64,000 bases of DNA from a plasmid. The DNA lies in the sequence record NZ_CP135254.1, one strand, 5' to 3'. Positions 246 through 58,886 of this stretch are shown in pieces; the stretch's first letter is position 1; every line of letters starts with the position of its first letter. Below the pieces are notes generated by a model. It had not been told where the DNA came from and did no database searches. It saw only the letters and a program-made list of their open reading frames with translations. A program made the translations under genes and the position numbers.

Positions 246-2999
246 ATGAACTGGATTGGTTCTCGGTGGTGGAAATTCGACTTCCATAATCACACTCCGG
301 CATCGGACGATTATGGAAAAGGCCCTAATCAGGCCCAGTATATGCAGATCACTCATAAAGATTGGCTGCTCAACTACATGCGACAAGGCATCGATTGTGT
401 CGCTGTCACGGACCATAATTCAGGCGCTTGGATTGATCCGCTCAAGCATGCACTCAAGGAACTGGCATCTGAGAGTCATGAAGATTATCGACCACTCTAC
501 TTATTCCCTGGTGTTGAGCTTACTGTTCAGGGGAATATCCATATTCTGGCCATTTTCGGAGAAGACAAGACAACCTCTGATATCGACTCACTGCTTGGTG
601 CGGTCAGGTATCGCGCCACCAAAGGAAAGAGCGACGGCTGCTCTGAATGCTCGGCAGTTGAGGTGATCGACGAAATTGCTAGGTCAGGAGGGCTTGCAAT
701 ACCTGCTCATGTAGATCAGGTTAGCGGACTTTTTACGGTCTGTACGGGCAACACACTAGAGCAGGTGCTTGACAACAAATGTGTTTTTGCTATGGAGGTA
801 ACGGACCTTGCTAAAGCAAAACCGCAGCTCTACATTAGCAAGAATTTGAATTGGGCAGAGATTCTTGGAACCGATTCCCATCATCCGTCCGGTACCGGAA
901 ATCAACGCTATCCGGGTAGCCATTTCACTTGGGTAAAAATGTCGGAGCCATCTTATGACGGATTACGGCTGGCGCTCATTGATGGTGCTCTTTCACTGAA
1001 GCGGTCGGACAACTTCACTGGTGACCCCAATATCCATGGACAACTTGCCATCGAAAGTATCGTGGTTGATGATGCGAAGTACTTAGGGCGAGGGCAATCT
1101 TTATCTTGTCAACTGAACCCCTGGCTCAACACTATCATTGGTGGACGAGGCACTGGGAAATCGACATCGTTGGAATTCCTGCGGATTGCTCTTAAACGAA
1201 AGGGAGAAATCCCCAAGAGCCTTGAAAAGGAATTTACCAAATACAGTCAAACTTCGAAAGACCGCCAAGATGAAGGGCTGTTAAAAGATTCCACGAAAAT
1301 AACTGTAGGCTTTCGAAAAGACGGTGGCCGTTTCCGAATCACCTGGTCTAATACCGACGACATATACAGCATCGAGGAAGAGACCGCTCCCGGAGTCTGG
1401 TGTGCTTCCGAGGGAGACATAGCACAACGATTTCCTGTCAGGATTTACAGCCAGAAACAGATATTCGAATTGGCAAAGCATCCCCAAGCACTCTTGCAAG
1501 TTGTCGATGATGCCGCGGTGGTCAATCATCGTGATTGGCAGCTTAAGTGGGATGAACTGGTTTCCAAATATTTCTCGCTTCGCGCCCAAGAGCGTGAAGT
1601 TCAGACCGGGCTTCAGGAGGAATCGGTAACCAAAGGTCAGCTTGAAGACGTCAAACGCAAACTCGATGTTTTTGAAAAGGCGGGCCACGCGGATGTCCTT
1701 AAGGCTTACCAACTCAGACAGAACCAGAGTAAGGCTATGGACTCTTGGGTAACGACTTGGGAGGGTTCCGCCGAACAGGTCCGAGATATTTCTGGAAGAC
1801 TGCTGCCAGCAGAATTGGATCTACAATATTTCGACATTGGGAATGCGGATGACAAAGAACTCTTCGATACCATCAAGGGCATCCGTGCGACGTTTGAGAA
1901 GCTTCAGACAGAGATGAACTCGATCGCGCAGCGGATTGATGATGTAAAGAACTCATGGAATCAAACTCGGTCAGACTTGGGAATATCGAAAAGAATTACA
2001 GCGGCGAGCCATGAATACACCGGCCTCCTCGGTCAACTCAGCGCAGCAGACGCAGGTGATCCATCTGCATATGGTGTTCTGGTTAAGCAGCGACAAGATT
2101 TCGAAGATAAGCTCAAGGGATTCGACAAAAAGAGAGAAACTCTTGCGCAGCATCAGAAGAGCGCGGAAGAATACTTGGTCAAGCTCCATGAGCATCGAGC
2201 ATTGATAACCAAGCTCCGTGAGGACTTTCTCAAGGATACCCTCGTCGGCAATTCATATGTACAGATCAATGTCATTCCGTTTGGAAACAAGCTTACGGTT
2301 GAGGAAGAATTCCGTAACCTGATCGGCCGCAGTAGTGGCGGATTTGACCGCGACATTGGAGTTGTTGACGGGGATGAGGGCTTGCTGGCTTATTTAACGC
2401 AAGACCAATCCAATACTATGGATGATAAAATTGAGAAAATAAAATCATCGCTACTTGCAATCCATGAAAACGATACTGTGGCGGTGGATTCCTGCAAAGA
2501 TCGACGTTTTGTATCCCACATTCAGGGGCTAACTCCGGAACAGATAGATCGAATTCAGTGCTGGTTTCCTGGTGATTCTCTGGATATCAGATATAGCCTC
2601 AAGAACGGCGAGAGTTTCAAACCCGTAGAGCAAGGATCTCCGGGGCAAAAAACGGCGGCTCTCCTTGCATTTATCCTTTCATATGGCAATGAGCCTCTTA
2701 TACTTGATCAGCCTGAGGATGATCTTGATAACCACTTGATCTATGATCTGATCGTAACGCAATTGCGTGAGATCAAACAAAAACGGCAGGTTTTAGTAGT
2801 CACGCACAACGCTAACATCGTCGTGAATGGTGATGCGGAAAACGTCATTGCCCTTGATATTCGGTCTGGCCAAACCAGAATTGTGACGCAAGGGGGTCTT
2901 CAAGAACCTTCCATACGCGATGAGATATGCAGAGTGATGGAAGGTGGCAGAGAGGCCTTTACCCAAAGATATAAACGAATCAATGCAGCAATCACATAG
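246..2999 (+). CDS. PHP-domain phosphoesterase fused to ABC/SMC-like ATPase (candidate single-gene defence protein, Ppl/TrlF-like architecture)
   Basis: N-terminal PHP motifs (FDFHNHT, VAVTDHNS, PGVEL, IPAHVDQ, GTDSHHP). Central Walker A GGRGTGKST. Coiled-coil-rich middle. C-terminal ABC-signature-like SPGQKTAALLAFIL and Walker B/D-loop LILDQPEDDLD, plus VLVVTHNANIV. Confidence 0.8.
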   Translation: MNWIGSRWWKFDFHNHTPASDDYGKGPNQAQYMQITHKDWLLNYMRQGIDCVAVTDHNSGAWIDPLKHALKELASESHEDYRPLYLFPGVELTVQGNIHILAIFGEDKTTSDIDSLLGAVRYRATKGKSDGCSECSAVEVIDEIARSGGLAIPAHVDQVSGLFTVCTGNTLEQVLDNKCVFAMEVTDLAKAKPQLYISKNLNWAEILGTDSHHPSGTGNQRYPGSHFTWVKMSEPSYDGLRLALIDGALSLKRSDNFTGDPNIHGQLAIESIVVDDAKYLGRGQSLSCQLNPWLNTIIGGRGTGKSTSLEFLRIALKRKGEIPKSLEKEFTKYSQTSKDRQDEGLLKDSTKITVGFRKDGGRFRITWSNTDDIYSIEEETAPGVWCASEGDIAQRFPVRIYSQKQIFELAKHPQALLQVVDDAAVVNHRDWQLKWDELVSKYFSLRAQEREVQTGLQEESVTKGQLEDVKRKLDVFEKAGHADVLKAYQLRQNQSKAMDSWVTTWEGSAEQVRDISGRLLPAELDLQYFDIGNADDKELFDTIKGIRATFEKLQTEMNSIAQRIDDVKNSWNQTRSDLGISKRITAASHEYTGLLGQLSAADAGDPSAYGVLVKQRQDFEDKLKGFDKKRETLAQHQKSAEEYLVKLHEHRALITKLREDFLKDTLVGNSYVQINVIPFGNKLTVEEEFRNLIGRSSGGFDRDIGVVDGDEGLLAYLTQDQSNTMDDKIEKIKSSLLAIHENDTVAVDSCKDRRFVSHIQGLTPEQIDRIQCWFPGDSLDIRYSLKNGESFKPVEQGSPGQKTAALLAFILSYGNEPLILDQPEDDLDNHLIYDLIVTQLREIKQKRQVLVVTHNANIVVNGDAENVIALDIRSGQTRIVTQGGLQEPSIRDEICRVMEGGREAFTQRYKRINAAIT

Positions 3000-3104
3000 A
3001 ACGGAGTTGCACTTGAACGGCAATTGCGCTGAGCTCAATTGCCGCCAATGCTTGGTCGTTAATGTCTGCTCCTGGCACAAAGCAGACATACTCAGAAAAG
3101 CAAC

Positions 3105-3701
3105 TCATGAACGAGCATCAGCGTCCTCCATTATCGCTTTCACTCTTAAAATGGTCTGCCGTGTGGTGTCAAATTCGCGGGCGATCGCGCTGATACTCTT
3201 CCCTTCACTAAGACGCAAGAACACCGCTTTCTTTTGTTCGTCATCCAGAGCCGGCGGGCGGCCGAAACGCTTTCCGGATGCCTTAGCCCGCGCAATACCA
3301 GCATGTGTACGTTCAAGTAGCAGATCGCGCTCAAATTCAGCAACCGCCGAGATTACCTGCATTGTCATCTTTCCGGCCGGACTGGTGAGGTCTACCCCTC
3401 CCAGCGCCAGGCAGTGTACCCGTATTTCTGACGCAGAAAGTAGCTCAACGGTTTTTCTGATATCCATGGCGTTTCGCCCGAGGCGATCCAGCTTCGTTAC
3501 GATTAAAACGTCCCCGTTTTCCATTCGATCAAGGAGACGCATAAATCCAGGGCGTTCAGCAGCCGCGACTGAACCACTTATGTACTCTTCAATCAGTCGC
3601 TGGGGTCTGATGGAAAAGCCGGCCGCTTCGATCTCACGACGCTGGTTTTCAGTGTTCTGTTCGAGGGTCGATACCCTGCAGTAGGCAAAAACTCGTGACA
3701 T
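3105..3701 (-). CDS. serine recombinase (resolvase/invertase family)
   Basis: N-terminal YCRVSTLEQ catalytic-serine motif; ~198 aa; C-terminal HTH. Confidence 0.9.
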
Positions 3702-3953
3702 ATAGTTATTTTATGTACGAAATGGATGTACTTATTATAGCGCATGTCCGAAACTAAAAACACTAACTTTCGGACATACTATATCTTACATGTACGAAAC
3801 CGGTCGGTTTTGTACATCCCATATTGTATGCTCTATGTGTTCCACTTAAAGTAATATTATTGTGACCACATAAGTTGTGGCTGGCTGGCAAAGTCAGCAC
3901 TGAATGCCTCCCTGCCCAACCAGTTTATATTGGTATCCGATTTTTCTACTTGC

Positions 3954-4472
3954 CTATTTTCTTTTGGCCGGAAACATCAGCATCAGGGTGTGAACACCGT
4001 TGATATCGATCGTATGGGCGCCTTCCGTGAAAGCCTCAAAAATCCCGACGTCTTTCAGACCGCCCAGTATCGCATCGACGTCAGTTTCTGACAGCTGACG
4101 CGCTGTTTTGTATTCCAACATGTTAGTGTTAGGGTTCGATGCGCGCTCAGACTCGACTTTCATTTTAATTTCGGCAATGACCGCAGGAATATTATCGGTG
4201 TTGAGCTCCAGTGCTCTAGCCTGAATACACGCGGCAAACTCCTTGGGGATTACAAACCACACGGGATATCCCCGCGACAGCGGCATACCTTTACTACCCT
4301 CATCCAGATTACCATTCCAGCGTATGCCGGTACATTCGCTGAAGGGCTGGTTCAGTTCGTCCCGGTAGTTAATGCGGGCGACGGACACGTCCCATTCGCC
4401 CGCATCGTAAAGCACATCTAGCACCTCTACATGGCCTCTGGGGGATAAAACATCTGTGGGTTTTACGTACAT
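3954..4472 (-). CDS. hypothetical protein
   Basis: Open frame with likely start MYVKPTDV; no recognisable domain. Confidence 0.4.
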   Translation of the reverse strand: MYVKPTDVLSPRGHVEVLDVLYDAGEWDVSVARINYRDELNQPFSECTGIRWNGNLDEGSKGMPLSRGYPVWFVIPKEFAACIQARALELNTDNIPAVIAEIKMKVESERASNPNTNMLEYKTARQLSETDVDAILGGLKDVGIFEAFTEGAHTIDINGVHTLMLMFPAKRK

Positions 4473-6035: not shown

Positions 6036-6275
6036 ATGAGGAAGTTTATGAAAGGCCCTGGTAAATCAATTAAAATTGAGCCCCCGAAAGAGGACGAACC
6101 GACACTGGATGTTACCGGAAAAGGGGCTGTTCCGGATTCGGCTGTCAAACCTATCCAAATCAAAGTTCCGGTGTCGAAACATAAAGAAATGAAGGCATAT
6201 GCAGCAGAGCAGGGGATCTCGATGACCGATATGCTCCTTGCCGGGTATGACATGTACAGAAATAAAATGAAATAA
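6036..6275 (+). CDS. small centromere-binding protein (ParG/RHH-like)
   Basis: 79 aa, immediately after parA; C-terminal ISMTDMLLAGYDMY, RHH-like. Confidence 0.55.
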   Translation: MRKFMKGPGKSIKIEPPKEDEPTLDVTGKGAVPDSAVKPIQIKVPVSKHKEMKAYAAEQGISMTDMLLAGYDMYRNKMK

Positions 6276-6449: not shown

Positions 6450-7724
6450 TTAACAGAGCCTTGCTGACGGAATGTCCGCCCATCTTGTGGTATATGCTGG
6501 CGACAGTAAATCTCGCTTCATCTGCCAGTCAGGAGCGATGCCTCGTCCCGCAAACCAGACTTTCCCAAGTCCTGAATGATTAATCCCGTCCACAACGTTC
6601 ATCAGGGCTTCGCTGTTTGCCCGGGGCTGAACATCATCAAACAGACTCAACTGAGAAACCCCCGCAGGCGTGAAATCGTTCAGCATCACGCCGGCTTTGG
6701 CATAACGGTGCTCGGGGACCCAGATGCGTCCGAGGGCTCTGACGGCAGCGGCGATGATATCCCGCGAGTCTCTGCTCGGGAACGGCAGACTCTCGCTGGC
6801 CATGTTTCCGTAGTAAGGCTCCTTCACGGCAAACGGCGACGTTTTCACAAAGACCGCGATGTGTCTGCAGTACTGCCGCTCACTGCGTAGTTTCTCCGCA
6901 GCACGCTCCGCGTACTGGCAGACAGCCTGGCGCATTGCGTCATATTCCGTGATGCGTTCACCAAAACTCCGGCTGCAGACTATCTGCTGTTTTGGCGGAG
7001 GCGCTTCTTCCAGCGAAATACAGCTTTCTCCGTTGAGTTCCCGGACGGTTCTCTCCAGCACCACGTTGAAATTCTTCCTGATGAATGCTGGATTCGCGCG
7101 CGCCAGCTGCAGTGCTGTGGTGATCCCCATTGTGTTCAGCTTCTTCGAGATCCGGCGCCCAACACCCCATATTTCTTCCACCGGCTGCAGTGAAAGCAGT
7201 TTCTCTGTCCGGCGGGGATTATCCGGGGTCAAAGCCAGTACGCCGCCAAACTGCGGCCACTCTTTGGAAGCCCACTGGGCTGATTTTGCCAGCGTTTTGC
7301 TGGGTCCCATACCGACGCCGATGGTCAGCGCGGTGTGGCGGTGCACATACTCTCGCAACTGGCGCCCAAAATCCTCAAAATCCACGCAGTTGTCGATGCC
7401 GGCGACGTCGAGGAACATCTCATCGATACTGTACTGCTCCACGCGCGGCGCCAGCGCCTCAAGGCAACGCATGACCCGTTCTGACATACTGTGGTACAGC
7501 GAATAATTGCTGGAGAACACGGCCACGTTATGCTTTTCCGCCAGTCCCTTCACCTTAAACCAGGGGGCGCCCATCGGAATACCGATGGCGCGGGCTTCGC
7601 GGCTGCGTGCGATTACGCAGCCGTCATTGTTGCTGAGGACTATCACCGGCCTGTCGCGCAGGTCCGGGCGAAAGACCTTCTCGCAGCTGGCATAGAAGCT
7701 GTTGACGTCAGCCAGGGCAAACAT
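6450..7724 (-). CDS. umuC: Y-family DNA polymerase V subunit UmuC/ImpB
   Basis: MFALADVNSFYASCEKVFRPDLR...; full length 424 aa. Confidence 0.95.
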   Translation of the reverse strand: MFALADVNSFYASCEKVFRPDLRDRPVIVLSNNDGCVIARSREARAIGIPMGAPWFKVKGLAEKHNVAVFSSNYSLYHSMSERVMRCLEALAPRVEQYSIDEMFLDVAGIDNCVDFEDFGRQLREYVHRHTALTIGVGMGPSKTLAKSAQWASKEWPQFGGVLALTPDNPRRTEKLLSLQPVEEIWGVGRRISKKLNTMGITTALQLARANPAFIRKNFNVVLERTVRELNGESCISLEEAPPPKQQIVCSRSFGERITEYDAMRQAVCQYAERAAEKLRSERQYCRHIAVFVKTSPFAVKEPYYGNMASESLPFPSRDSRDIIAAAVRALGRIWVPEHRYAKAGVMLNDFTPAGVSQLSLFDDVQPRANSEALMNVVDGINHSGLGKVWFAGRGIAPDWQMKRDLLSPAYTTRWADIPSARLC

Positions 7725-7735
7725 ACCGGTACTCC

Positions 7736-8185
7736 TTACAGGCGGGCGCGGGTACGATGAATGAAGTGCATCACCACGCCGAACAGCGTGAGTTCTTCCG
7801 GCCAGAGCGTCGGATAAGCCGGATTCATCGGCTCCAGGGCAGGGCGGGGATGCAGACGCAGCCGCTTTACCGTAAACCCGCCGTCCACTTCCGCAATCAC
7901 CACATCGCCGTCCACGGCGGTCTCCGACCGGTCCACGACCAGAATGTCGCCGTCATACAGACCGAGGTCTTTCATACTCTCTCCGCTGGCGCGCAGGAAA
8001 TAAGTGGCTGCCGGATGGCGGATACACAGGCTGTTTAAATCCAGCTCCTGCTCAACATAATCCCCGGCAGGGCTCGGAAAACCCGCCGCACAGGCATCCG
8101 CAAACAGGGGCAGCTGCAGGGAAGATGGCGTGGCCGGAAGAGTGAACACCGCCTCCGGGTCAAACAGGGGCTCCCTGCGACTCAT
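7736..8185 (-). CDS. umuD: UmuD/ImpA (LexA-like S24 peptidase)
   Basis: FPSPAGDYVEQELDLN...ASGESM...KRL motifs. Start MSRREPLF overlaps the upstream gene stop (ATGA). Confidence 0.9.
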   Translation of the reverse strand: MSRREPLFDPEAVFTLPATPSSLQLPLFADACAAGFPSPAGDYVEQELDLNSLCIRHPAATYFLRASGESMKDLGLYDGDILVVDRSETAVDGDVVIAEVDGGFTVKRLRLHPRPALEPMNPAYPTLWPEELTLFGVVMHFIHRTRARL

Positions 8186-8427
8186 TCCGGCAGCCATGTG
8201 TCGTCCTGCCAGATGGCTTCAAGTGTGTTCATGATGTCCGACTTTTCCTTGTCGCTGCGCGCGCCGCTGACATCCAGCGCGGTCTGCGAACTTTTTCCGA
8301 TGTTCAGCCAGAGTTGAGGGTATCGTGGGGTGAGGCGGCGCTCAATTTCCTGCTGCAGTGCGGCAAAGGTGCCGCTGCGCATGGCCTTCACCTGCTCCGG
8401 GGAAAAACGGACGGAAATCTGCAACAT
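8182..8427 (-). CDS. impC: DinI-family protein (ImpC-like)
   Basis: 81 aa; C-terminal TLEAIWQDDTWLPE resembles the DinI C-terminus; first gene of the imp-type operon. Confidence 0.75.
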   Translation of the reverse strand: MLQISVRFSPEQVKAMRSGTFAALQQEIERRLTPRYPQLWLNIGKSSQTALDVSGARSDKEKSDIMNTLEAIWQDDTWLPE

Positions 8428-8439
8428 GGCGCACCTCTT

Positions 8440-8459
8440 TACTGTATGGATGTACAGTT
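8440..8459. promoter_or_regulatory. LexA (SOS) box overlapping the imp operon promoter
   Basis: tACTGTatggatgtACAGtt matches CTGT-N8-ACAG. A -35 TTGCAA / -10 AATAAT pair lies on the minus strand just upstream. Confidence 0.8.
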
Positions 8460-34524: not shown

Positions 34525-34812
34525 TTACCTCATCCGTTCGCTGGCCAGATTGTACACGTCACTACGTTCACGCTTTCCGACAGCCACAACAGCAATAATC
34601 AGTTGATCATCTATTACCTGATAGACCAGACGAAAGCCTGACGCGCGAAGTTTAATTTTATAGCAGTCCTTTATCCCTCTCAGCTTTGCTGAGGGGATAT
34701 GTGGTTCGTCACAGCACTTCTTCAGCTTCTTCGCAAACTGTTGCTGAATGGCCTTATCCAGCTTTTGCCATTCCTTCAGCGCATCTTCCCTGAATTTGAC
34801 CGTATAAGTCAT
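34525..34812 (-). CDS. relE: RelE/ParE-family toxin (StbE-like)
   Basis: 95 aa; DALKEWQKLDKAIQQQFAKKLKK...IKLRASGFRLVYQVIDDQLII is a RelE signature. Confidence 0.85.
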   Translation of the reverse strand: MTYTVKFREDALKEWQKLDKAIQQQFAKKLKKCCDEPHIPSAKLRGIKDCYKIKLRASGFRLVYQVIDDQLIIAVVAVGKRERSDVYNLASERMR

Positions 34813-35060
34813 AGATATGTGTCCAGATCCACGTCAAGCAGTCGCTGGTTACTGCGTTCTGAAACCAGCTTTGCCAGTTCCTGATCATCCAGGGCATCGA
34901 GCATCTTCTCGTAAAGCTCTGCCGGGATGCAGTAAAAAGCGGGCTGATTACGGTTCAGAATAGCGACCGGGAAGCCGTCGCCGGCACTGACCGTCGCCAT
35001 CGGGTTTTTTTTAAGTTCGCTGATGCTCGCGCTTGTGTCACTCAGAATAATGTTGGGCAT
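34809..35060 (-). CDS. Phd/YefM-family antitoxin (StbD-like)
   Basis: 83 aa; overlaps the toxin start. Confidence 0.8.
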   Translation of the reverse strand: MPNIILSDTSASISELKKNPMATVSAGDGFPVAILNRNQPAFYCIPAELYEKMLDALDDQELAKLVSERSNQRLLDVDLDTYL

Positions 35061-35226: not shown

Positions 35227-36501
35227 TTAAAACCTGGCGACCGGTAACTCTTTCCAGCGGGTTGTATATGCCGGTGACAACATATCCCTCTTCATCTGCC
35301 ACTCAGGAGCAATACCTCTGCCGGCAAACCAGATTTTCCCAAGCCCTGAGTGATTAATGCCATCGAGGACTTTCATCAGAGCATCACTGTGCGGCCGCGG
35401 CTGTATCTCATCGAACAGGTTCAGCTGAGAGACCCCGTTGGGACAGAAATCGTTCAGCATGACTCCCGCTTTTGCGTAGCGGTGACCAGGTACCCAGATC
35501 CTGTCCAGTGCGTTAACTGCAGCGGCGATAATATCCCGGGAGTCTCGCGTTGGCGTACTCAGTTTTTCCGTCGAGATATTCCCGTAGTACGGCTCTTTGA
35601 CGGCGAATGGCGAAGTTTTGATGAAGGCTGAGATATGCCGGCAGTACTGTCGTTCACCACGCAGCTTTTCTGCTGCCCGCTCAGCATACTGACATATGGC
35701 CTGGCGGAGCTCATCATAGGTGGTGATCCGCTGCCCGAAGCTGCGACTGCAGACGATCTGCTGTTTGGGCGGCGGTGCTTCCTCCAGCGAAATACAGCTC
35801 TCTCCGTTCAGCTCCCGGACAGTTCGCTCGAGCACAACGTTAAAGTTCTTCCGGATAAACGTCGGGTTAGTCAGCGACAGCTGCAGGGCTGTTGTGATCC
35901 CCATCGCCTTCAGTTTCTTCGCTATCCGGTTTCCCACCCCCCAGATCTCCTCCACCGGCTGCAGGCTGAGTAATTTTGCTGTCCTGCCAGGATTATCCGG
36001 CGACAGCGCCAGCACTCCCCGGAACTGTGGCCATTCTTTCGATGCCCACTGTGCCGATTTCGCCAGTGTCTTTGTGGCGCCGAAACCGACACCGATTGTG
36101 AGCCCCGTACCACTCAGGACGTGCCCGCGCAGCTGCCTGCCAAATTCTTCCAGATCCATACAGTGGCCAATGCCCCGGGCATCGAGGAAACACTCATCAA
36201 TAGAATACTGCTCAACACGGGGAGATAACTCTTCAAGCAGGGCAACCACGCGGTTACTTAGACTCGCATAAAGCTCATAATTACTTGAAAATACGAACAG
36301 TTTTTCCGGGAATTGTACGTCTTTCAGCTGGAACCACGGCGTACCCATTTTTATGCCCAATCGCCGTTTGGCCTCTGGGCTTCTGGCGATCACGCAGCCG
36401 TCGTTATTACTCAGGCAAATGACGGGTTTTCCTCTTAAATCCGGGCGAAATACTTTCTCGCAGCTGGCATAGAATGAGTTGACATCGGCCAGAGCGAACA
36501 T
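35227..36501 (-). CDS. mucB: Y-family polymerase subunit MucB/UmuC, second paralog
   Basis: 424 aa; ~70% identical to the 6450..7724 product. Confidence 0.95.
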   Translation of the reverse strand: MFALADVNSFYASCEKVFRPDLRGKPVICLSNNDGCVIARSPEAKRRLGIKMGTPWFQLKDVQFPEKLFVFSSNYELYASLSNRVVALLEELSPRVEQYSIDECFLDARGIGHCMDLEEFGRQLRGHVLSGTGLTIGVGFGATKTLAKSAQWASKEWPQFRGVLALSPDNPGRTAKLLSLQPVEEIWGVGNRIAKKLKAMGITTALQLSLTNPTFIRKNFNVVLERTVRELNGESCISLEEAPPPKQQIVCSRSFGQRITTYDELRQAICQYAERAAEKLRGERQYCRHISAFIKTSPFAVKEPYYGNISTEKLSTPTRDSRDIIAAAVNALDRIWVPGHRYAKAGVMLNDFCPNGVSQLNLFDEIQPRPHSDALMKVLDGINHSGLGKIWFAGRGIAPEWQMKRDMLSPAYTTRWKELPVARF

Positions 36502-36926
36502 CAGTCCGTGCCCCGTGTTTTGTGAATAAACGCGGTGACCACGCCAAAAATCTGGAGCGTCTCCGGGTCCGGATACAGGACAGGGTAAGCCGGATTCATC
36601 GCCTGCAGGGCAGGGCGGGGGGTCAGCAGAAGGCGTTTAACCGTGAACTCCCCCTCAATCTCGGCAATGACGATATCGCCATGCCGGGGTTTTTCCGCTT
36701 TATCAACGACCATCAGGTCACCGGAGTAAAGACCGATATCCGTCATGGAGTTTCCGATGGCCCGGACAAAATAGGTCGAATGGCGCCGGCGAATGCAGTA
36801 TTCGTTGAGGTCCAGCTCCGATTCGGTGTAGTCCGCGGCCGGAGAGGGGAAACCGGCCGCACACCGTTCAGTGAAAAGCGGCAGGGTGAGTGTTCCGGGG
36901 TTGAGTGCTGCAGGTGTGAATTCCAC
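36501..36926 (-). CDS. mucA: MucA/UmuD, second paralog (GTG start)
   Basis: FPSPAADYTESELDLN...GNSM...KRL motifs. SD AAGGAG lies 6 nt before a GTG. The longer ORF to 37085 reads into the intron's 3' end. Confidence 0.8.
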   Translation of the reverse strand: MEFTPAALNPGTLTLPLFTERCAAGFPSPAADYTESELDLNEYCIRRRHSTYFVRAIGNSMTDIGLYSGDLMVVDKAEKPRHGDIVIAEIEGEFTVKRLLLTPRPALQAMNPAYPVLYPDPETLQIFGVVTAFIHKTRGTD

Positions 36927-36944
36927 CGTTTCGCTCCTTATTGT

Positions 36945-38851
36945 CGCGGTAGGGATACCCGTTACCGGATACCCCCCGCACAGATCCCGGCGTGCGCGAT
37001 TTACGCACCGGGCTCCTGCCTCGGGTGTCTGGCGGTGAACCGCTCCACAGGCCATGGATGAAGAACCCGAACCCTTGGTAGCCATGCGGCTGCCAGTTTG
37101 TTTGCTTTCGTCCAGGTCGTATCATCCTTCTGGCTCCTGCGCCTGAGCGCCCGGCGCCAGAGGTTTGTTACGTGTGTCCTGAACTTCTGCATGGTGGGGA
37201 AGTTGCCCGGTACCGAGTGATAGTTCAGGTATCCCTGAACCACTCTCCTGAGCCATTTTCCCTGTTCGGGGATTGAGTAATGCCAGCGCCTTCGCAGACC
37301 GTCTTTGATGGCTTTCAGAGTTGCCGTCATCCGATCCCGGCGGGTCTTTCGTATCAGCATGAACCTGCCGTTGCGATCTTTCCCGCTGATGTGCGTGAAC
37401 CCGAGGAAGTTGAACGTTTCTGGTTTGCCTTTTCCCCTGATGGCACGGTTTTCGGCAGCGAAGCGGCCGAACTCCATCAGACGGGTTTTCTCCGGGTGAA
37501 CCGTGAGTCCGAACTCCCTCAGTCTGCGCTGCATGGCTATACGGAAGCGCCGGGCATCGTATCGTTTGTCGAACCCGATGACGATGTCATCGGCGTATCT
37601 GACCATTACCACATTGCCTGTGGCATAGCGACGTCGCCACTGATGCGCCCACAGATCGAAGACGTAGTGGAGGTATATGTTTGCCAGCAGCGGTGAGATG
37701 ACCGCACCCTGTGGGGTGCCTTCCTCCGTTGCTCGCCATTGACCCTCCTCCGACGTCCCGGCTGTGAGCCACTTACGTATGAGCCTGATTACCCTCCGGT
37801 CGCCGATCCGATGCTCTGTGAACCTGATCAGCCATTCGTGGCTCACCCTGTCGAAGAACTGACTGATGTCGGCATCCAGTACCCAGTTTACGTTAGTGCG
37901 TACCAGCCCTGTGGCCAGTGCGTCCAGTGCATCGTGCTGGCTTCGCCCGGGTCTGAACCCGTATGAGAACCCCATAAAGTCGTTTTCATAGACTGCGTTC
38001 AGGATTTTCACCAGCGCATACTGGACGATCTTGTCCTCCAGCGAGGCGATGCCGAGCGGGCGTTGTTTTCCATCCGCTTTTGGGATGTAGTGACGCCTGC
38101 CGGGCTGCGCCCTGTAGCTGCCCTGATGTAGCCTCCGGTGCAGATCTGTTATGTTGTTCTTCATGTTTCCGGCGTAGTCCATCCACCTGATGCCATCCAC
38201 TCCGGCGGCCGCTTTCCTGCTCAGGGAGAGGAATGCGGCTTCCAGTGCTTCGACTGTCAGCAGGTGGAACAATGCTGTAAACCGTTCTTTCTTCCGCTGC
38301 TTCGCAGCTTCCCGCACGCGTGACAGCCTCTGTGACATGCTTTCCCGGCTCTGTGTCCGGCGCATGTGTGGCTGTTCCGCGTTCCCCTTGGCCCCGCTCC
38401 TTCGCTCCACTGACTCCGCTCCTTTCGGGTTGTTCGCCTGCTTCGCCGCTACTATGAGCGAGTCCGACTTCTCCTCTCCGTACATCACCGGCTATGACTC
38501 CTCGTCTTCCCGGTGCGGGCCATCTCCGACGCTGGCAGATGGTCAGAGGGGAGATCTCCCGGTTCCCGCGTAGAGATCGTATTGACATGCCAGGGTCTCA
38601 GACCCCGCCGGGTCCATGTGGCACTCGCAGTATCGCACCCTATGATGTTGCCTTCCGTTAACAGTACAACGTCGGCACCCGGTAATTTAATATACATTTC
38701 GTGGCTCAATGGCTGGCCTGTCAACACCCCTGTCAACGCTTCGCCCCATACCTCGCGGTATGCAACGCATGACTCGGGGACCTTGTGGATTGCTGGTCCT
38801 TCAATGGTCGGGGACTTTCACCCCTTGATCTCTACCGGTCTCCCGGCGCAC
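36945..38851 (-). mobile_element. bacterial group II intron (~1.9 kb) with RT/maturase ORF; 5' end GTGCG abuts the LexA box
   Basis: The minus strand reads ...ACAGT|GTGCGCCGGGAGACCGG at 38851. IEP ORF with RT motifs inside. The 3' boundary is approximate, just upstream of the mucA SD. Confidence 0.7.
37001..38365 (-). CDS. group II intron-encoded reverse transcriptase/maturase
   Basis: RT domains 0-7: FTALFHLLTVEALEAAF...AAGVDGI, PQGAVISPLLANIYL, VRYADDIVIGF (YADD); C-terminal X/maturase domain. Confidence 0.85.
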   Translation of the reverse strand: MRRTQSRESMSQRLSRVREAAKQRKKERFTALFHLLTVEALEAAFLSLSRKAAAGVDGIRWMDYAGNMKNNITDLHRRLHQGSYRAQPGRRHYIPKADGKQRPLGIASLEDKIVQYALVKILNAVYENDFMGFSYGFRPGRSQHDALDALATGLVRTNVNWVLDADISQFFDRVSHEWLIRFTEHRIGDRRVIRLIRKWLTAGTSEEGQWRATEEGTPQGAVISPLLANIYLHYVFDLWAHQWRRRYATGNVVMVRYADDIVIGFDKRYDARRFRIAMQRRLREFGLTVHPEKTRLMEFGRFAAENRAIRGKGKPETFNFLGFTHISGKDRNGRFMLIRKTRRDRMTATLKAIKDGLRRRWHYSIPEQGKWLRRVVQGYLNYHSVPGNFPTMQKFRTHVTNLWRRALRRRSQKDDTTWTKANKLAAAWLPRVRVLHPWPVERFTARHPRQEPGA

Positions 38852-38870
38852 ACTGTATTTATATACAGTA
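38851..38870. promoter_or_regulatory. LexA (SOS) box of the second mucAB-like operon
   Basis: caCTGTatttatatACAGta. -35 TTGCAA (38894..38899) and -10 AATAAT (38871..38876) lie on the minus strand upstream. Confidence 0.75.
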
Positions 38871-39044
38871 ATTATTTTATCTGCAGCGCTTTTTTGCAAG
38901 CCTCTTTCACATCGAAATCGCTAAGGCTCTGCTGCCAGAGCGAAAACAGGCCGTGGTTGCAGAAAGAGAGTCCCGGGCCCCTTTGACCCGGATATGCTGT
39001 AATATACTGATATCATCTGGTTTTCATCCCTTCAGGAGATACTC

Positions 39045-39400: not shown

Positions 39401-39665
39401 TGATCCTTCCTTCGCCCGCTGCCAGTGTTCCGCGTCCGGCTGTTCACGGGACGGGCGGCTTTTCCGCTCCGGCCCGGCGCCGCTGGTATTTTGCGCCAGT
39501 CCCTCGCCATTCTAAGGATCGGCCTTCAAGCCGCTTTCGCGGCATAGCCTCGCCGTCGAAACGACTGACGGCTGCGGTATTCCACGGTCGGCATTGACCC
39601 GTTACCGGCCGCGGCGTACAGGCAGCGTGCGGCAGGGAAGGGTATCGCGGTGATATCTCCTGCAC
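39401..39665 (+). repeat. family 1 repeat copy b
   Basis: Alignable to 9021..9285 and 40368..40648. Confidence 0.4.
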
Positions 39666-39709
39666 ACACTGACCACAGAGGAGTCGGCGGGATACCGCCC
39701 GAAAAGCGA

Positions 39710-40367: not shown

Positions 40368-40648
40368 TGGGGGATGAACCTGCCACCCGCTGCCAGTGTC
40401 TCGCGTCCGGTCTGATACGGGACGGGCGGTTTTTCCGCTCCGGCCCGGCGCCGCTGGTATTTTGCGCCAGCCCCTCGCCACGTTAAGGAACGCCCTTCAA
40501 GCCGCTTTCGCGGCATATCCTTGCCGCCATAAAAACTGACGGCTGCGGTATTCCACGGTCGGCCTGACCCGTGACCGGACGCGATGAACAGGCAGCGTGC
40601 GGCAGGGAACGGTATCGCGGTGATGCCTCCTGCCCCCTCTGACTACAG
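40368..40648 (+). repeat. family 1 repeat copy c
   Basis: Alignable to copies a and b; directly upstream of the methyltransferase. Confidence 0.4.
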
Positions 40649-40658
40649 GAGTGCTGCC

Positions 40659-41360
40659 ATGTCCAGATTCATTCTCGGAAACTGTATTGATGTGATGCGC
40701 GGATTCCCCGACCGCGCCGTTGACCTCATTGTGACCGATCCGCCTTACCTGGTCGGTTTTAAGGACCGTTCCGGACGGGCTATTGCCGGGGATGTGACGG
40801 ACGAATGGCTGCAACCGGCCACGCTGGAGATGTACCGCGTCCTCAAAAAAGACGCGCTGATGGTCAGTTTCTATGGCTGGAACCGCGTCGATCGTTTTAT
40901 GGCGGCATGGAAAGCGGCAGGATTCTACGCTGTGGGCCAGATTGTGTTCACCAAAACCTATGCCTCCAACCGCCGTAACGCTAAGGTCAGGCGCGGATTC
41001 GTGGACTACTGCCATGAAGGGGCTTATGTCCTCGCTAAAGGGCGCCCGGTGCCACCCGAAAAACCGCTGCCGGACGTGCTGCCGTTTCCTTATACCGGCA
41101 ATCCGCTGCATCCCACCCAGAAACCGGTGGAGGCTCTGCAACCGCTGATTGAGTCATTCAGCGCCCCGGGGGCGATTGTCCTTGACCCCTTTGCCGGCAG
41201 CGGTTCGACCTGTGTCGCCGCATACCGTGCCGGACGTCGCTATATCGGCATCGAAGTGCTGGCGCAGTACCACAGAGCCGGAGCCGGACGACTGGCCGCC
41301 ATGCACCGGGCCGTTAATACCCCGGCGGCGAACGATGAATGGCTCCCGGAGGCGGCGTGA
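40659..41360 (+). CDS. DNA methyltransferase (N6-A/N4-C, DPPY type), intact leading-region copy
   Basis: DLIVTDPPYL...; SD ACAGGAG before the ATG. Confidence 0.85.
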   Translation: MSRFILGNCIDVMRGFPDRAVDLIVTDPPYLVGFKDRSGRAIAGDVTDEWLQPATLEMYRVLKKDALMVSFYGWNRVDRFMAAWKAAGFYAVGQIVFTKTYASNRRNAKVRRGFVDYCHEGAYVLAKGRPVPPEKPLPDVLPFPYTGNPLHPTQKPVEALQPLIESFSAPGAIVLDPFAGSGSTCVAAYRAGRRYIGIEVLAQYHRAGAGRLAAMHRAVNTPAANDEWLPEAA

Positions 41361-58124: not shown

Positions 58125-58205
58125 TGTAGTTTGAAAATTTGAGAAGCATTAGCGTCAGAAGGTGTGACTTCTGACGCTAACTATCCATAGAACCTTCTAA
58201 GGAGG
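58125..58205 (-). ncRNA. finP: putative FinP antisense RNA (position inferred)
   Basis: Perfect 11-bp stem hairpin AGCGTCAGAAG-GTGTGAC-CTTCTGACGCT at 58151..58178 in the traJ leader, overlapping the traJ RBS region. Ends not determined. Confidence 0.3.
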
Positions 58206-58211
58206 CAACCT

Positions 58212-58886
58212 ATGTGTGCGAAGGATCGTAGTCAAAACTCAGTATGCAGTCAAACGGAATTCATCCAATACCTCGATGATGTGTTTTCTATTTCTTCAAG
58301 TCTCTCCCTCATCCGTGACTCGCAGGGTGAGCTAGTTCATTTAAGTCCTCTTTTTGAGACACTCCTGTTGAAAGGTAGTGAACTAAAAGTATGGTTTTCA
58401 TTTATTCCACTTGATGTTCGGTTAGAGCTTTTTAATGCTGAGCTCAACTCTCTATCAGGAGAGGGGCCATATTTTTCAAAAAATGTGAAGTCGATGAATC
58501 AAGTGTTGAACATATTCATTGAGTGCATATATGTAAAAGGTCGTAAATTTACGCGTTGGGTTTTTTTTCCAGAGTCTAATGGTTTTTTTCATTTGCATCA
58601 TGAATATGACAAAGCTTCTAAGATAATTGATGATATTTTTTACTTGAGAAGGAAAGTGGATCTGCAGTTTTGGAAGGTTTTTAATTTATACGCCTTTGGT
58701 TTTACTAACTCGAAAATTTCAAGCTCAACTAATTTGACTGAGGATCAGGTTAAAAAAACAATTAAGAAGATTAAGGCTGAATGCTTTGTGAGCAGCAGTG
58801 ATTGTCTGGCTTTATTGACTTTGTATACACTAAATTATAATAGGCTAGCTATTAATGTGATTAACATTTTATCTAATAAATGTTAA
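58212..58886 (+). CDS. traJ: TraJ transfer activator (divergent)
   Basis: Position between traM and traY; AT-rich 224-aa ORF; SD AAGGAGG. Confidence 0.7.
   Translation: MCAKDRSQNSVCSQTEFIQYLDDVFSISSSLSLIRDSQGELVHLSPLFETLLLKGSELKVWFSFIPLDVRLELFNAELNSLSGEGPYFSKNVKSMNQVLNIFIECIYVKGRKFTRWVFFPESNGFFHLHHEYDKASKIIDDIFYLRRKVDLQFWKVFNLYAFGFTNSKISSSTNLTEDQVKKTIKKIKAECFVSSSDCLALLTLYTLNYNRLAINVINILSNKC

Follow-up and report, generated by a model that had tools for sequence, protein, structure and literature searches.

The 64,000 nt stretch of plasmid sequence analysed here (NZ_CP135254.1; referred to as the window) carries, on its minus strand, an operon of umuD/mucA-like and umuC/mucB-like genes, and a group II intron lies between the promoter and LexA operator (SOS box) of this operon and its first gene (Table 1). 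A sequence-only reading of the window had described a −35 element TTGCAA, 17 nt, a −10 element AATAAT, the LexA box and then the intron 5' end, and had placed the intron between the SOS promoter/operator and the first gene. All of these elements are present on the minus strand; the layout can be read directly, and intron-less alleles show that the insertion is precise. The main point, which that reading missed, is, judging from the sequences compared, that LexA boxes are systematically targeted by the intron lineage, through pairing of exon-binding sites (EBS) in the intron with intron-binding sites (IBS) in the box. We conclude that the element is very probably a mobile group II intron without an endonuclease domain whose homing site is the LexA operator.

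Table 1. Positions in the window of the intron, its target and the associated operons
Feature	Position	Strand	Details
Sigma-70-like promoter of the umuDC-like operon	38871..38899	−	−35 TTGCAA, 38899..38894; 17 nt spacer; −10 AATAAT, 38876..38871
LexA operator (SOS box), predicted from sequence	38852..38870	−	TACTGTATATAAATACAGT; end of the 5' exon
Proposed IBS2	38864..38858	−	ATATAAA; spacer of the box
IBS1	38856..38852	−	ACAGT; right half of the box
Complete mobile group II intron	36943..38851	−	1,909 nt; 5' GUGCG ... GCGAC 3'; Rfam RF02005, empty sites, copies with differing flanks
Proposed EBS2 (UGUAUAU)	38690..38696	−	Domain I internal loop GAAAUGUAUAUUAAAUUA (38700..38683); partner, box positions −13..−7
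EBS1 (ACUGU)	38661..38665	−	Terminal loop of domain I hairpin 38676..38650; pairs with IBS1 ACAGU
Candidate EBS3	38600	−	U252 in GGUC-U-GAGACC; partner, first 3' exon base A, 36942
Intron-encoded reverse transcriptase/maturase	37001..38488	−	495 aa; YADD; no endonuclease domain; RVT_1 and TIGR04416
Domain V, including AGC triad	36983..37015	−	RNAalifold consensus, six diverged copies
Domain VI, with bulged branch-point A at 36950	36946..36979	−	RNAalifold, six copies
3' exon and UmuD/MucA-like gene	36501..36942	−	A (IBS3), 36942; Shine–Dalgarno AAGGAG, 36939..36934; GTG, 36926
UmuC/MucB-like Y-family DNA polymerase gene	35227..36501	−	424 aa; IMS, IMS_C, DUF4113 and IMS_HHH domains
Paralogous impCAB-like operon	6450..8427	−	DinI-like, S24 and IMS genes; own LexA box at 8442..8457, unoccupied

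A promoter scan also recovered the TTGCAA/AATAAT site (9/12 matches), and this promoter directly adjoins the LexA box. The box contains the gamma- and betaproteobacterial 16-mer core CTGT-N8-ACAG within TACTGTATAT-N-ATACAGTA, directly after the −10 element, and is one of four such cores in the window, where 0.6 would be expected. In the occupied box, positions 1–19 of the 20 nt operator are unaltered and position 20 has changed from A to G; as this is the only change, binding of LexA to the junction of box and intron is presumably retained. On the other side of the intron, the 3' exon sequence is AATAAGGAGCGAAACGGTGGAA; AATAAGGAGCGAAACGGTG. The GTG start codon in it, which is also the start in the RefSeq annotation of an identical Klebsiella michiganensis IncF plasmid, begins a 141 aa UmuD-like protein (Peptidase_S24, 7.8e-25). 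The Shine–Dalgarno (SD) sequence and GTG start reported in the sequence-only reading therefore stand, but its AACGTG should read AACGGTG, one G having been dropped. As in umuDC/mucAB-type operons, the S24 gene is followed by an IMS polymerase gene, the ATG of which overlaps the umuD-like stop codon.

The element that separates operator and gene has every feature of a mobile group II intron that can be looked for in a sequence. It begins with GTGCGCCGGGAGACCGG, the first bases of which, GUGCG, agree with GUGYG, and Rfam model RF02005 (group-II-D1D4-6) matched 38818..38593 over its full length (1–225/225; 186.6 bits, E = 1e-54; gathering score, 49). Empty sites that are 100% identical, together with copies in which the flanks differ, fixed the boundaries. 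The intron of about 1.9 kb with a YADD-containing reverse transcriptase (RT)/maturase ORF that had been proposed is thus 1,909 nt long, and the ORF for its intron-encoded protein (IEP), which might have been a fragment, is unbroken over all 495 codons, with YADD encoded at 37597..37586. The IEP scored 376 bits (cut-off, 300) over residues 81–451 against TIGR04416, the NCBI curated equivalog for group II RT/maturases, and matched RVT_1 at 4.6e-47; no further Pfam domain was found even at E ≤ 5, and an endonuclease domain is absent. It is 99% identical to a protein cluster of 3,157 members. A PDB sequence search gave it no intron class, the IEP being about equidistant from the GsI-IIC, T.el4h, E.r. 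and LtrA RTs, and the type given here, D1D4-6, is the Rfam structural type rather than a formal phylogenetic class. Folding an alignment of six diverged copies (73–100% identical) with RNAalifold recovered both domain V, which has a 3 nt loop and a G-A opposite the triad G as oddities, and domain VI, in which the bulged A is 7 nt from the intron 3' end and three pairs have compensatory changes on both sides. The intron looks active.

When 349 nt of the 5' exon were joined to 350 nt of the 3' exon and used to query a plasmid collection, contiguous matches that were 100% identical over all 699 nt were found in 13 plasmids, and the occupied allele was found in only one record. The empty site reads TACTGTATATAAATACAGT/AATAAGG (the slash marks the insertion point here and below), and the predicted ligated-exon junction is …AAATACAGU/AAUAAGGAG…. 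The insertion point is between positions 19 and 20 of the 20 nt operator, and there is no target duplication. As 13 plasmids carry the identical intron-less site, insertion at the umuDC-like operon was precise, and it was probably recent. The possibility that the box travels with the intron was considered and rejected, because the empty sites retain the whole box, which is thus part of the host promoter rather than of the intron.

The intron was present in 4,312/72,556 plasmid records, most of which are from Klebsiella, and in 219/5,426 complete Escherichia coli genomes. Many of the plasmid copies share the same umuDC-adjacent context, which is what would be seen if a single chance insertion near a LexA box had become widespread by vertical inheritance and the spread of one plasmid backbone. 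Nearly all BLAST alignments of the intron ran 13–27 nt past its 5' end, over the box, and many stopped exactly at its 3' end. Target sites were surveyed in diverse loci, species-representative genomes and viral contigs, with copies mapped by blastn, as a strict search for the intron ends overlooked those with a 1 nt indel. In a first set of 26 distinct 5' exons, CAGT was present at −4..−1 in all 26, the C, T, G and T at −17..−14 were present in 23, 24, 23 and 21, respectively, and the base at +1 was A in 16/18 sites. A larger set, to which 67 prophage or viral contigs were added, included the window intron and Burkholderia-type relatives in plasmids, prophages and chromosomes. Here, 64/78 distinct 5' flanks had a perfect CTGT-N8-ACAGT, 12 had other sequences, mostly boxes with one mismatch, and the remaining two were tandem intron–intron junctions.

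The occupied boxes belong to many different genes. The E. coli chromosomal umuDC and sbmC operators, both of which are LexA-regulated, were occupied by the same intron, as were several unrelated plasmid umuDC alleles. A colicin-like bacteriocin gene and integrase genes were also among the occupied sites, and many prophage sites were upstream of ORFs of 79 aa (DinI-sized) or 139 aa (UmuD-sized). Relatives approximately 73% identical to the window intron were likewise located at LexA boxes in Burkholderia cenocepacia, Trinickia and Paraburkholderia chromosomes, and one site of a Ralstonia relative (69% IEP identity) was directly upstream of an IMS and DnaE2 (imuB/dnaE2-type) cassette. Copies that were 99.8–100% identical were found at at least 10 different sites, which indirectly supports recent mobility. 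As dozens of unrelated occupied sites share the box, its placement there is not accidental, and appears to be a systematic property of the intron lineage in many replicons rather than a one-off event. A single chance insertion can accordingly be set aside almost entirely: the unrelated flanks, which lie on both sides of the intron (chromosomal umuDC/sbmC, colicin-like, prophage and Burkholderiales), all include the box, the same site exists both empty and occupied, EBS1 is complementary to the box, and the diversity of 3' exons and distal 5' flanks at occupied boxes already refutes it.

A few copies lie elsewhere. Ectopic sites that match IBS1 only were found in L006 (at 2,506, near blaCTX-M-15) and in two Ralstonia loci, L107 and L109 (both at 2,136); the junctions are …GGCACAGT/T, …CATCCGGTA/T and …GTTCCAGTA/T, respectively, and one is inside a type IV secretion coupling-protein gene. 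These insertions indicate what would be occasional retrotransposition away from LexA boxes. In L113 (approximately 2,180..4,064), a 5'-truncated copy that begins near intron position 72 abuts the box-like sequence TATGTATATTTATACAGTA, and has the appearance of a degenerate remnant at a site that was once a target.

Comparison of diverged introns suggested how the target is read. The domain I hairpin with EBS1 in its terminal loop has a loop, U-ACUGU, that is constant in all copies and a stem that covaries. More distant relatives, retrieved through IEP homologues, differ in EBS1. In the Enterobacterales type present in the window, EBS1 is ACUGU and the 5' exon ends in ACAGU, at a LexA box. The Burkholderia/Trinickia type (intron DNA approximately 73% identical) has ACUGU(A) and (U)ACAGU, also at a LexA box, and in Ralstonia solanacearum (IEP 69% identical) UACUG is found with CAGUA at a LexA box where the insertion is 1 nt further downstream. 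At non-LexA sites, a Rhodospirillales metagenome-assembled genome (IEP 64% identical) has ACAGAU with AUCUGU and a metagenomic relative (IEP 65% identical) has UCAGAU with AUCUGA. The exon-binding pairing that had been named as a check was thus found, and EBS1 changes along with the end of the 5' exon across all five lineages.

The +1 base also varies by lineage (A, T or C), and only one column of the domain I alignment, U252, tracks it in Watson–Crick fashion (U/A, A/T and G/C). A three-way split was seen in only four domain I columns, and two of these are inside EBS1. Pairing of the base 5' of EBS1 with +1 (a IIA-type delta–delta' interaction) was rejected, as it does not hold for the Ralstonia, Rhodospirillales or metagenomic relatives; all five lineages agree with the EBS3 column. 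Because EBS1 and the candidate EBS3 covary with the target, and relatives with no more than 65% IEP identity have different EBS1 loops and are located at non-LexA sites, targeting appears to be guided by the intron RNA, and LexA-box homing appears to be restricted to a subclade.

This covariation bears on a further explanation, namely that insertion is broad and selection then retains only copies in the 5' untranslated regions of non-essential SOS genes on mobile elements. Group II introns are generally intergenic and located in mobile elements (PMC12584367; PMC7306698), as this would predict. Yet the insertion point does not vary by even one nucleotide relative to the box, its position is accounted for by the complementarity and covariation of EBS1 and EBS3, and the rare non-box sites keep the IBS1 match. 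Selection after insertion is therefore a highly improbable source of the pattern.

For EBS2, the proposed register (−13..−7) gave a mean of 6.06/7 pairs over 54 sites in the enterobacterial type, where register −15 scored 6.52. In the Burkholderia and Ralstonia types, the highest-scoring register is the equivalent one. An EBS2 register that puts IBS2 just upstream of IBS1 (−13 or −12 to −7) is the best or near-best in all three LexA-box lineages. Together, the proposed pairings span approximately 13 nt of the box plus the +1 base, and the distal CTGT is outside them.

As the LexA box is palindromic, the intron occurs in both orientations. According to a crude ORF heuristic, 34/47 assessable sites have the start of a gene in the sense orientation within 120 nt downstream, and 10 have one in antisense only. 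Antisense copies were seen in L002, L004, L005, L007 and L008 (approximately 2,480..2,530 in each), which are loci of K. pneumoniae IncFII(K)/IncR-type plasmids, and the same sites also hold variants that are 90–92% identical. The opposite strand of every occupied box is still an intact target (…GGCGCAC/ACTGT…ACAGT/A), and no head-to-head double insertion was found among approximately 80 sites; a strand or replication bias, or interference, may be responsible.

Head-to-tail arrays were found downstream of a single LexA box. The longest, in L051 (6088..13700), has four copies (at 6088, 7997, 9906 and 11815) with an exact 1,909 nt spacing, and two copies are present in each of L081 (at 1103 and 3012) and L026 (1..2378). 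Such arrays fit re-insertion at the box/G(UGCG) junction, with G tolerated at +1, and lend indirect support to activity of the intron. Re-insertion there would be possible because a G at +1 can wobble-pair with the U of EBS3.

Several observations weigh against our interpretation. Rfam model RF00029 (Intron_gpII), which represents domains V and VI and had been suggested as the way to find them, had no match in the intron at E ≤ 1; both domains came instead from folding the six aligned copies. As the target is a TA repeat, the enterobacterial type leaves the register of EBS2 ambiguous. The transcription start site is only a prediction from the position of the −10 element, and if it were downstream of the box the RNA would have neither IBS1 nor IBS2 and would be unable to splice. 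Many copies are antisense to the SOS gene and not expressible from its promoter; they dominate in the abundant K. pneumoniae IncFII(K)/IncR lineages, where 1.9 kb parts the −10 element from the operator and umuD. Finally, the distal CTGT, which is unpaired in our proposal, is present at approximately 90% of occupied sites. It may reflect a contact made by the IEP or a DNA structure, or it may be that such sequences occur mainly in real operators.

The distal CTGT is central to two other explanations. In the first, host LexA, or an IEP that contacts the distal half-site, steers the intron ribonucleoprotein (RNP) to operators and pairing sets only the exact position, which would resemble the tethered integration of some eukaryotic retroelements. 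The distal CTGT was found in 50/56 occupied sites vs roughly 8/30 unoccupied matches to the proximal part, a comparison that is suggestive but heavily biased, as the loci were chosen because they contain occupied sites. LexA on its operator should mask the target instead of making it accessible, and the IEP has no interaction domain that could be detected. With a pairing of approximately 13 nt plus +1, most of the good matches in a genome are already real LexA boxes. We regard steering of this kind as unlikely.

In the second, the shape of the DNA is recognized: single-stranded or supercoiled DNA would allow the palindromic box to fold into a hairpin or cruciform, which would be recognized in the way that class C (IIC) introns recognize terminator and attC stem-loops, and no more than a short IBS1 pairing would be required. 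In favour of this, the target is almost perfectly palindromic, occupied sites retain the distal CTGT though it is outside the proposed EBS pairings, and the IEP, as in IIC introns, has no endonuclease domain, which suggests use of replication-fork DNA. A hairpin would, however, bury IBS1 (ACAGT) in its stem, IIC introns insert a few nucleotides past the stem and not at its last base pair, and a plausible EBS2 exists with its best register at the canonical IBS2 position. Sites without the distal half of the box are also used (L006, L010 and L061, and the Ralstonia ectopic sites L107 and L109). Recognition of shape is thus quite improbable, and reading of the operator by the intron RNA remains our preferred explanation.

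The proposed mechanism is as follows. EBS1 (ACUGU) would pair with ACAGT at −5..−1, EBS2 (UGUAUAU) probably with the TA-rich spacer at about −13..−7, and EBS3 (U) with the A at +1. The intron RNP would then reverse-splice between positions 19 and 20 of the 20 nt box TACTGTATAT-N-ATACAGT/A, leaving the CTGT-N8-ACAG core intact upstream of the inserted intron; in a palindromic box, either strand could be attacked. Because LexA boxes overlap or abut promoters, an intron in the sense orientation would occupy the extreme 5' end of a transcript under SOS control. The layout suggests that cleavage of LexA would lead to production of the intron and its RT, and that splicing of the intron out of a short 5' exon, predicted from the −10 element to be approximately 11–13 nt and long enough for IBS1 and most of IBS2, would restore the umuDC mRNA. 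The freed RNP could invade other LexA boxes, which would be unmasked at that moment. It is reasonable to expect from this layout that the intron RNA and RT would be SOS-inducible and that umuDC expression would depend on read-through and splicing, and these expectations are strengthened by the recurrence of the sense arrangement at many other SOS promoters.

More tentatively, we propose that a clade found in Enterobacterales, Burkholderiaceae and Ralstonia uses the operator as its homing site in such a way that DNA damage both induces the intron and its RT and strips LexA from the targets. The outcome would be a burst of retrohoming, gated by DNA damage, into sites of the SOS regulon, plasmids and prophages, with SOS genes rewired in the process; we consider this possible, without leaning towards it. 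If it is correct, there is a direct link between the SOS response and retroelement mobility. Sense copies would make expression of umuDC, sbmC, dinI-like, colicin and imuB/dnaE2 genes dependent on splicing, and antisense copies, which epidemic K. pneumoniae plasmids often carry, would separate the promoter from its operator and gene by 1.9 kb. Control of error-prone polymerases (umuDC and imuB/dnaE2), colicins and other SOS genes would then be altered in carriers, with a bearing on stress-induced mutagenesis and the evolution of resistance. The intron would also offer a naturally occurring, RNA-programmable means to insert cargo at SOS promoters.

A paralogous operon with a dinI-like gene and no intron had also been pointed out in the window, and its DinI-like, S24 and IMS genes and unoccupied box were all found (Table 1). 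On the minus strand this box reads AACTGTACATCCATACAGT/AAAGAGG, and it is a plausible unoccupied target on the same plasmid; its EBS2 pairing, 5/7, is at the low end of the range for occupied sites. A direct repeat of approximately 265 nt (39415..39678 and 40386..40648; 86–88% identical, spaced by approximately 970 nt) is located just upstream of the umuDC promoter, within what appears to be the plasmid leading region, and a DNA methylase gene (40584..41360) is nearby. Directly downstream of the umuC-like gene is a Phd/YefM-RelE/ParE toxin–antitoxin pair (34525..35060, minus strand), and such a pair is likewise beside umuDC in related plasmids (L011 and L118). The FinP antisense RNA (58142..58218, minus strand; Rfam, 47.4 bits) indicates that the window is part of an F-like conjugative plasmid, and the window matches plasmid p3 (IncFIA/FII/IncU) of K. 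michiganensis BSI-KPN166.

The intron is not new as such: public records contain thousands of annotations of it as ltrA, and also show it close to umuDC in Klebsiella plasmids. No report of a group II intron lineage that homes to LexA operators was found in the full-text literature searched, a scope outside which most subscription journals fall, so that an earlier description is possible. The introduction of a 2025 paper, in which specialized intron contexts are listed, and a 2020 paper on intron neighbourhoods are silent on homing to LexA operators. Waldern et al. 2020 ("hiding and hijacking") does not describe insertion at an SOS box, as neither "LexA" nor "SOS" is in the text. Known group II intron specializations are for particular genes, terminators, attC hairpins, and start or stop codons. 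If our interpretation is true, an operator common to a whole stress regulon is a new kind of homing site, which would explain why thousands of clinically important plasmids and prophages of Klebsiella and E. coli carry this "ltrA" element.

The host locus resembles other plasmid and chromosomal umuDC/mucAB/impCAB operons, with an ordinary CTGT-N8-ACAG box that overlaps the promoter and S24 and IMS genes, and differs from them in the 1.9 kb intron between the operator and the SD and start codon. RmInt1, which homes to an insertion sequence, represents a type of intron that is similar in that its IEP consists of RT and maturase regions without a DNA endonuclease, but we found no relation of the RmInt1 target to a host regulatory site. 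As for RmInt1-type introns, reverse transcription would be expected to be primed at replication forks, in line with the Discussion of PMC12584367.

The IIB1 "start/stop-codon" introns (Avi.groEL and EcKTE56.groEL) are described in the same paper as a specialized clade with a stress-response gene context, host-promoter expression and site-specific retrohoming, their target being the conserved groEL stop codon and their RNA having a large extra subdomain Ia (PMC12584367). The lineage described here is also tied to a stress-response context, but targets a regulon-wide operator, has no insertion of the subdomain Ia type and is found in both orientations.

IIC introns have no EBS2 and read a hairpin. 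They include B.h.I1 and the attC-targeting S.ma.I2 group, and are likewise compact and without an endonuclease domain. IIC introns specialize on a recurrent DNA motif, an intrinsic terminator or an attC stem-loop, and are found at many unrelated loci per genome (PMC12584367; PMC7306698). The lineage in the window also targets a recurrent functional motif and not one gene. However, where IIC introns insert a few nucleotides past a terminator or attC stem-loop, the site here is an operator close to a promoter, and the intron has a candidate EBS2 loop; we do not count it among the IIC introns. The motif is the operator of a transcription factor at the start, rather than the end, of a transcription unit, and the intron enters at the palindrome's last base, apparently via EBS1, EBS2 and EBS3.

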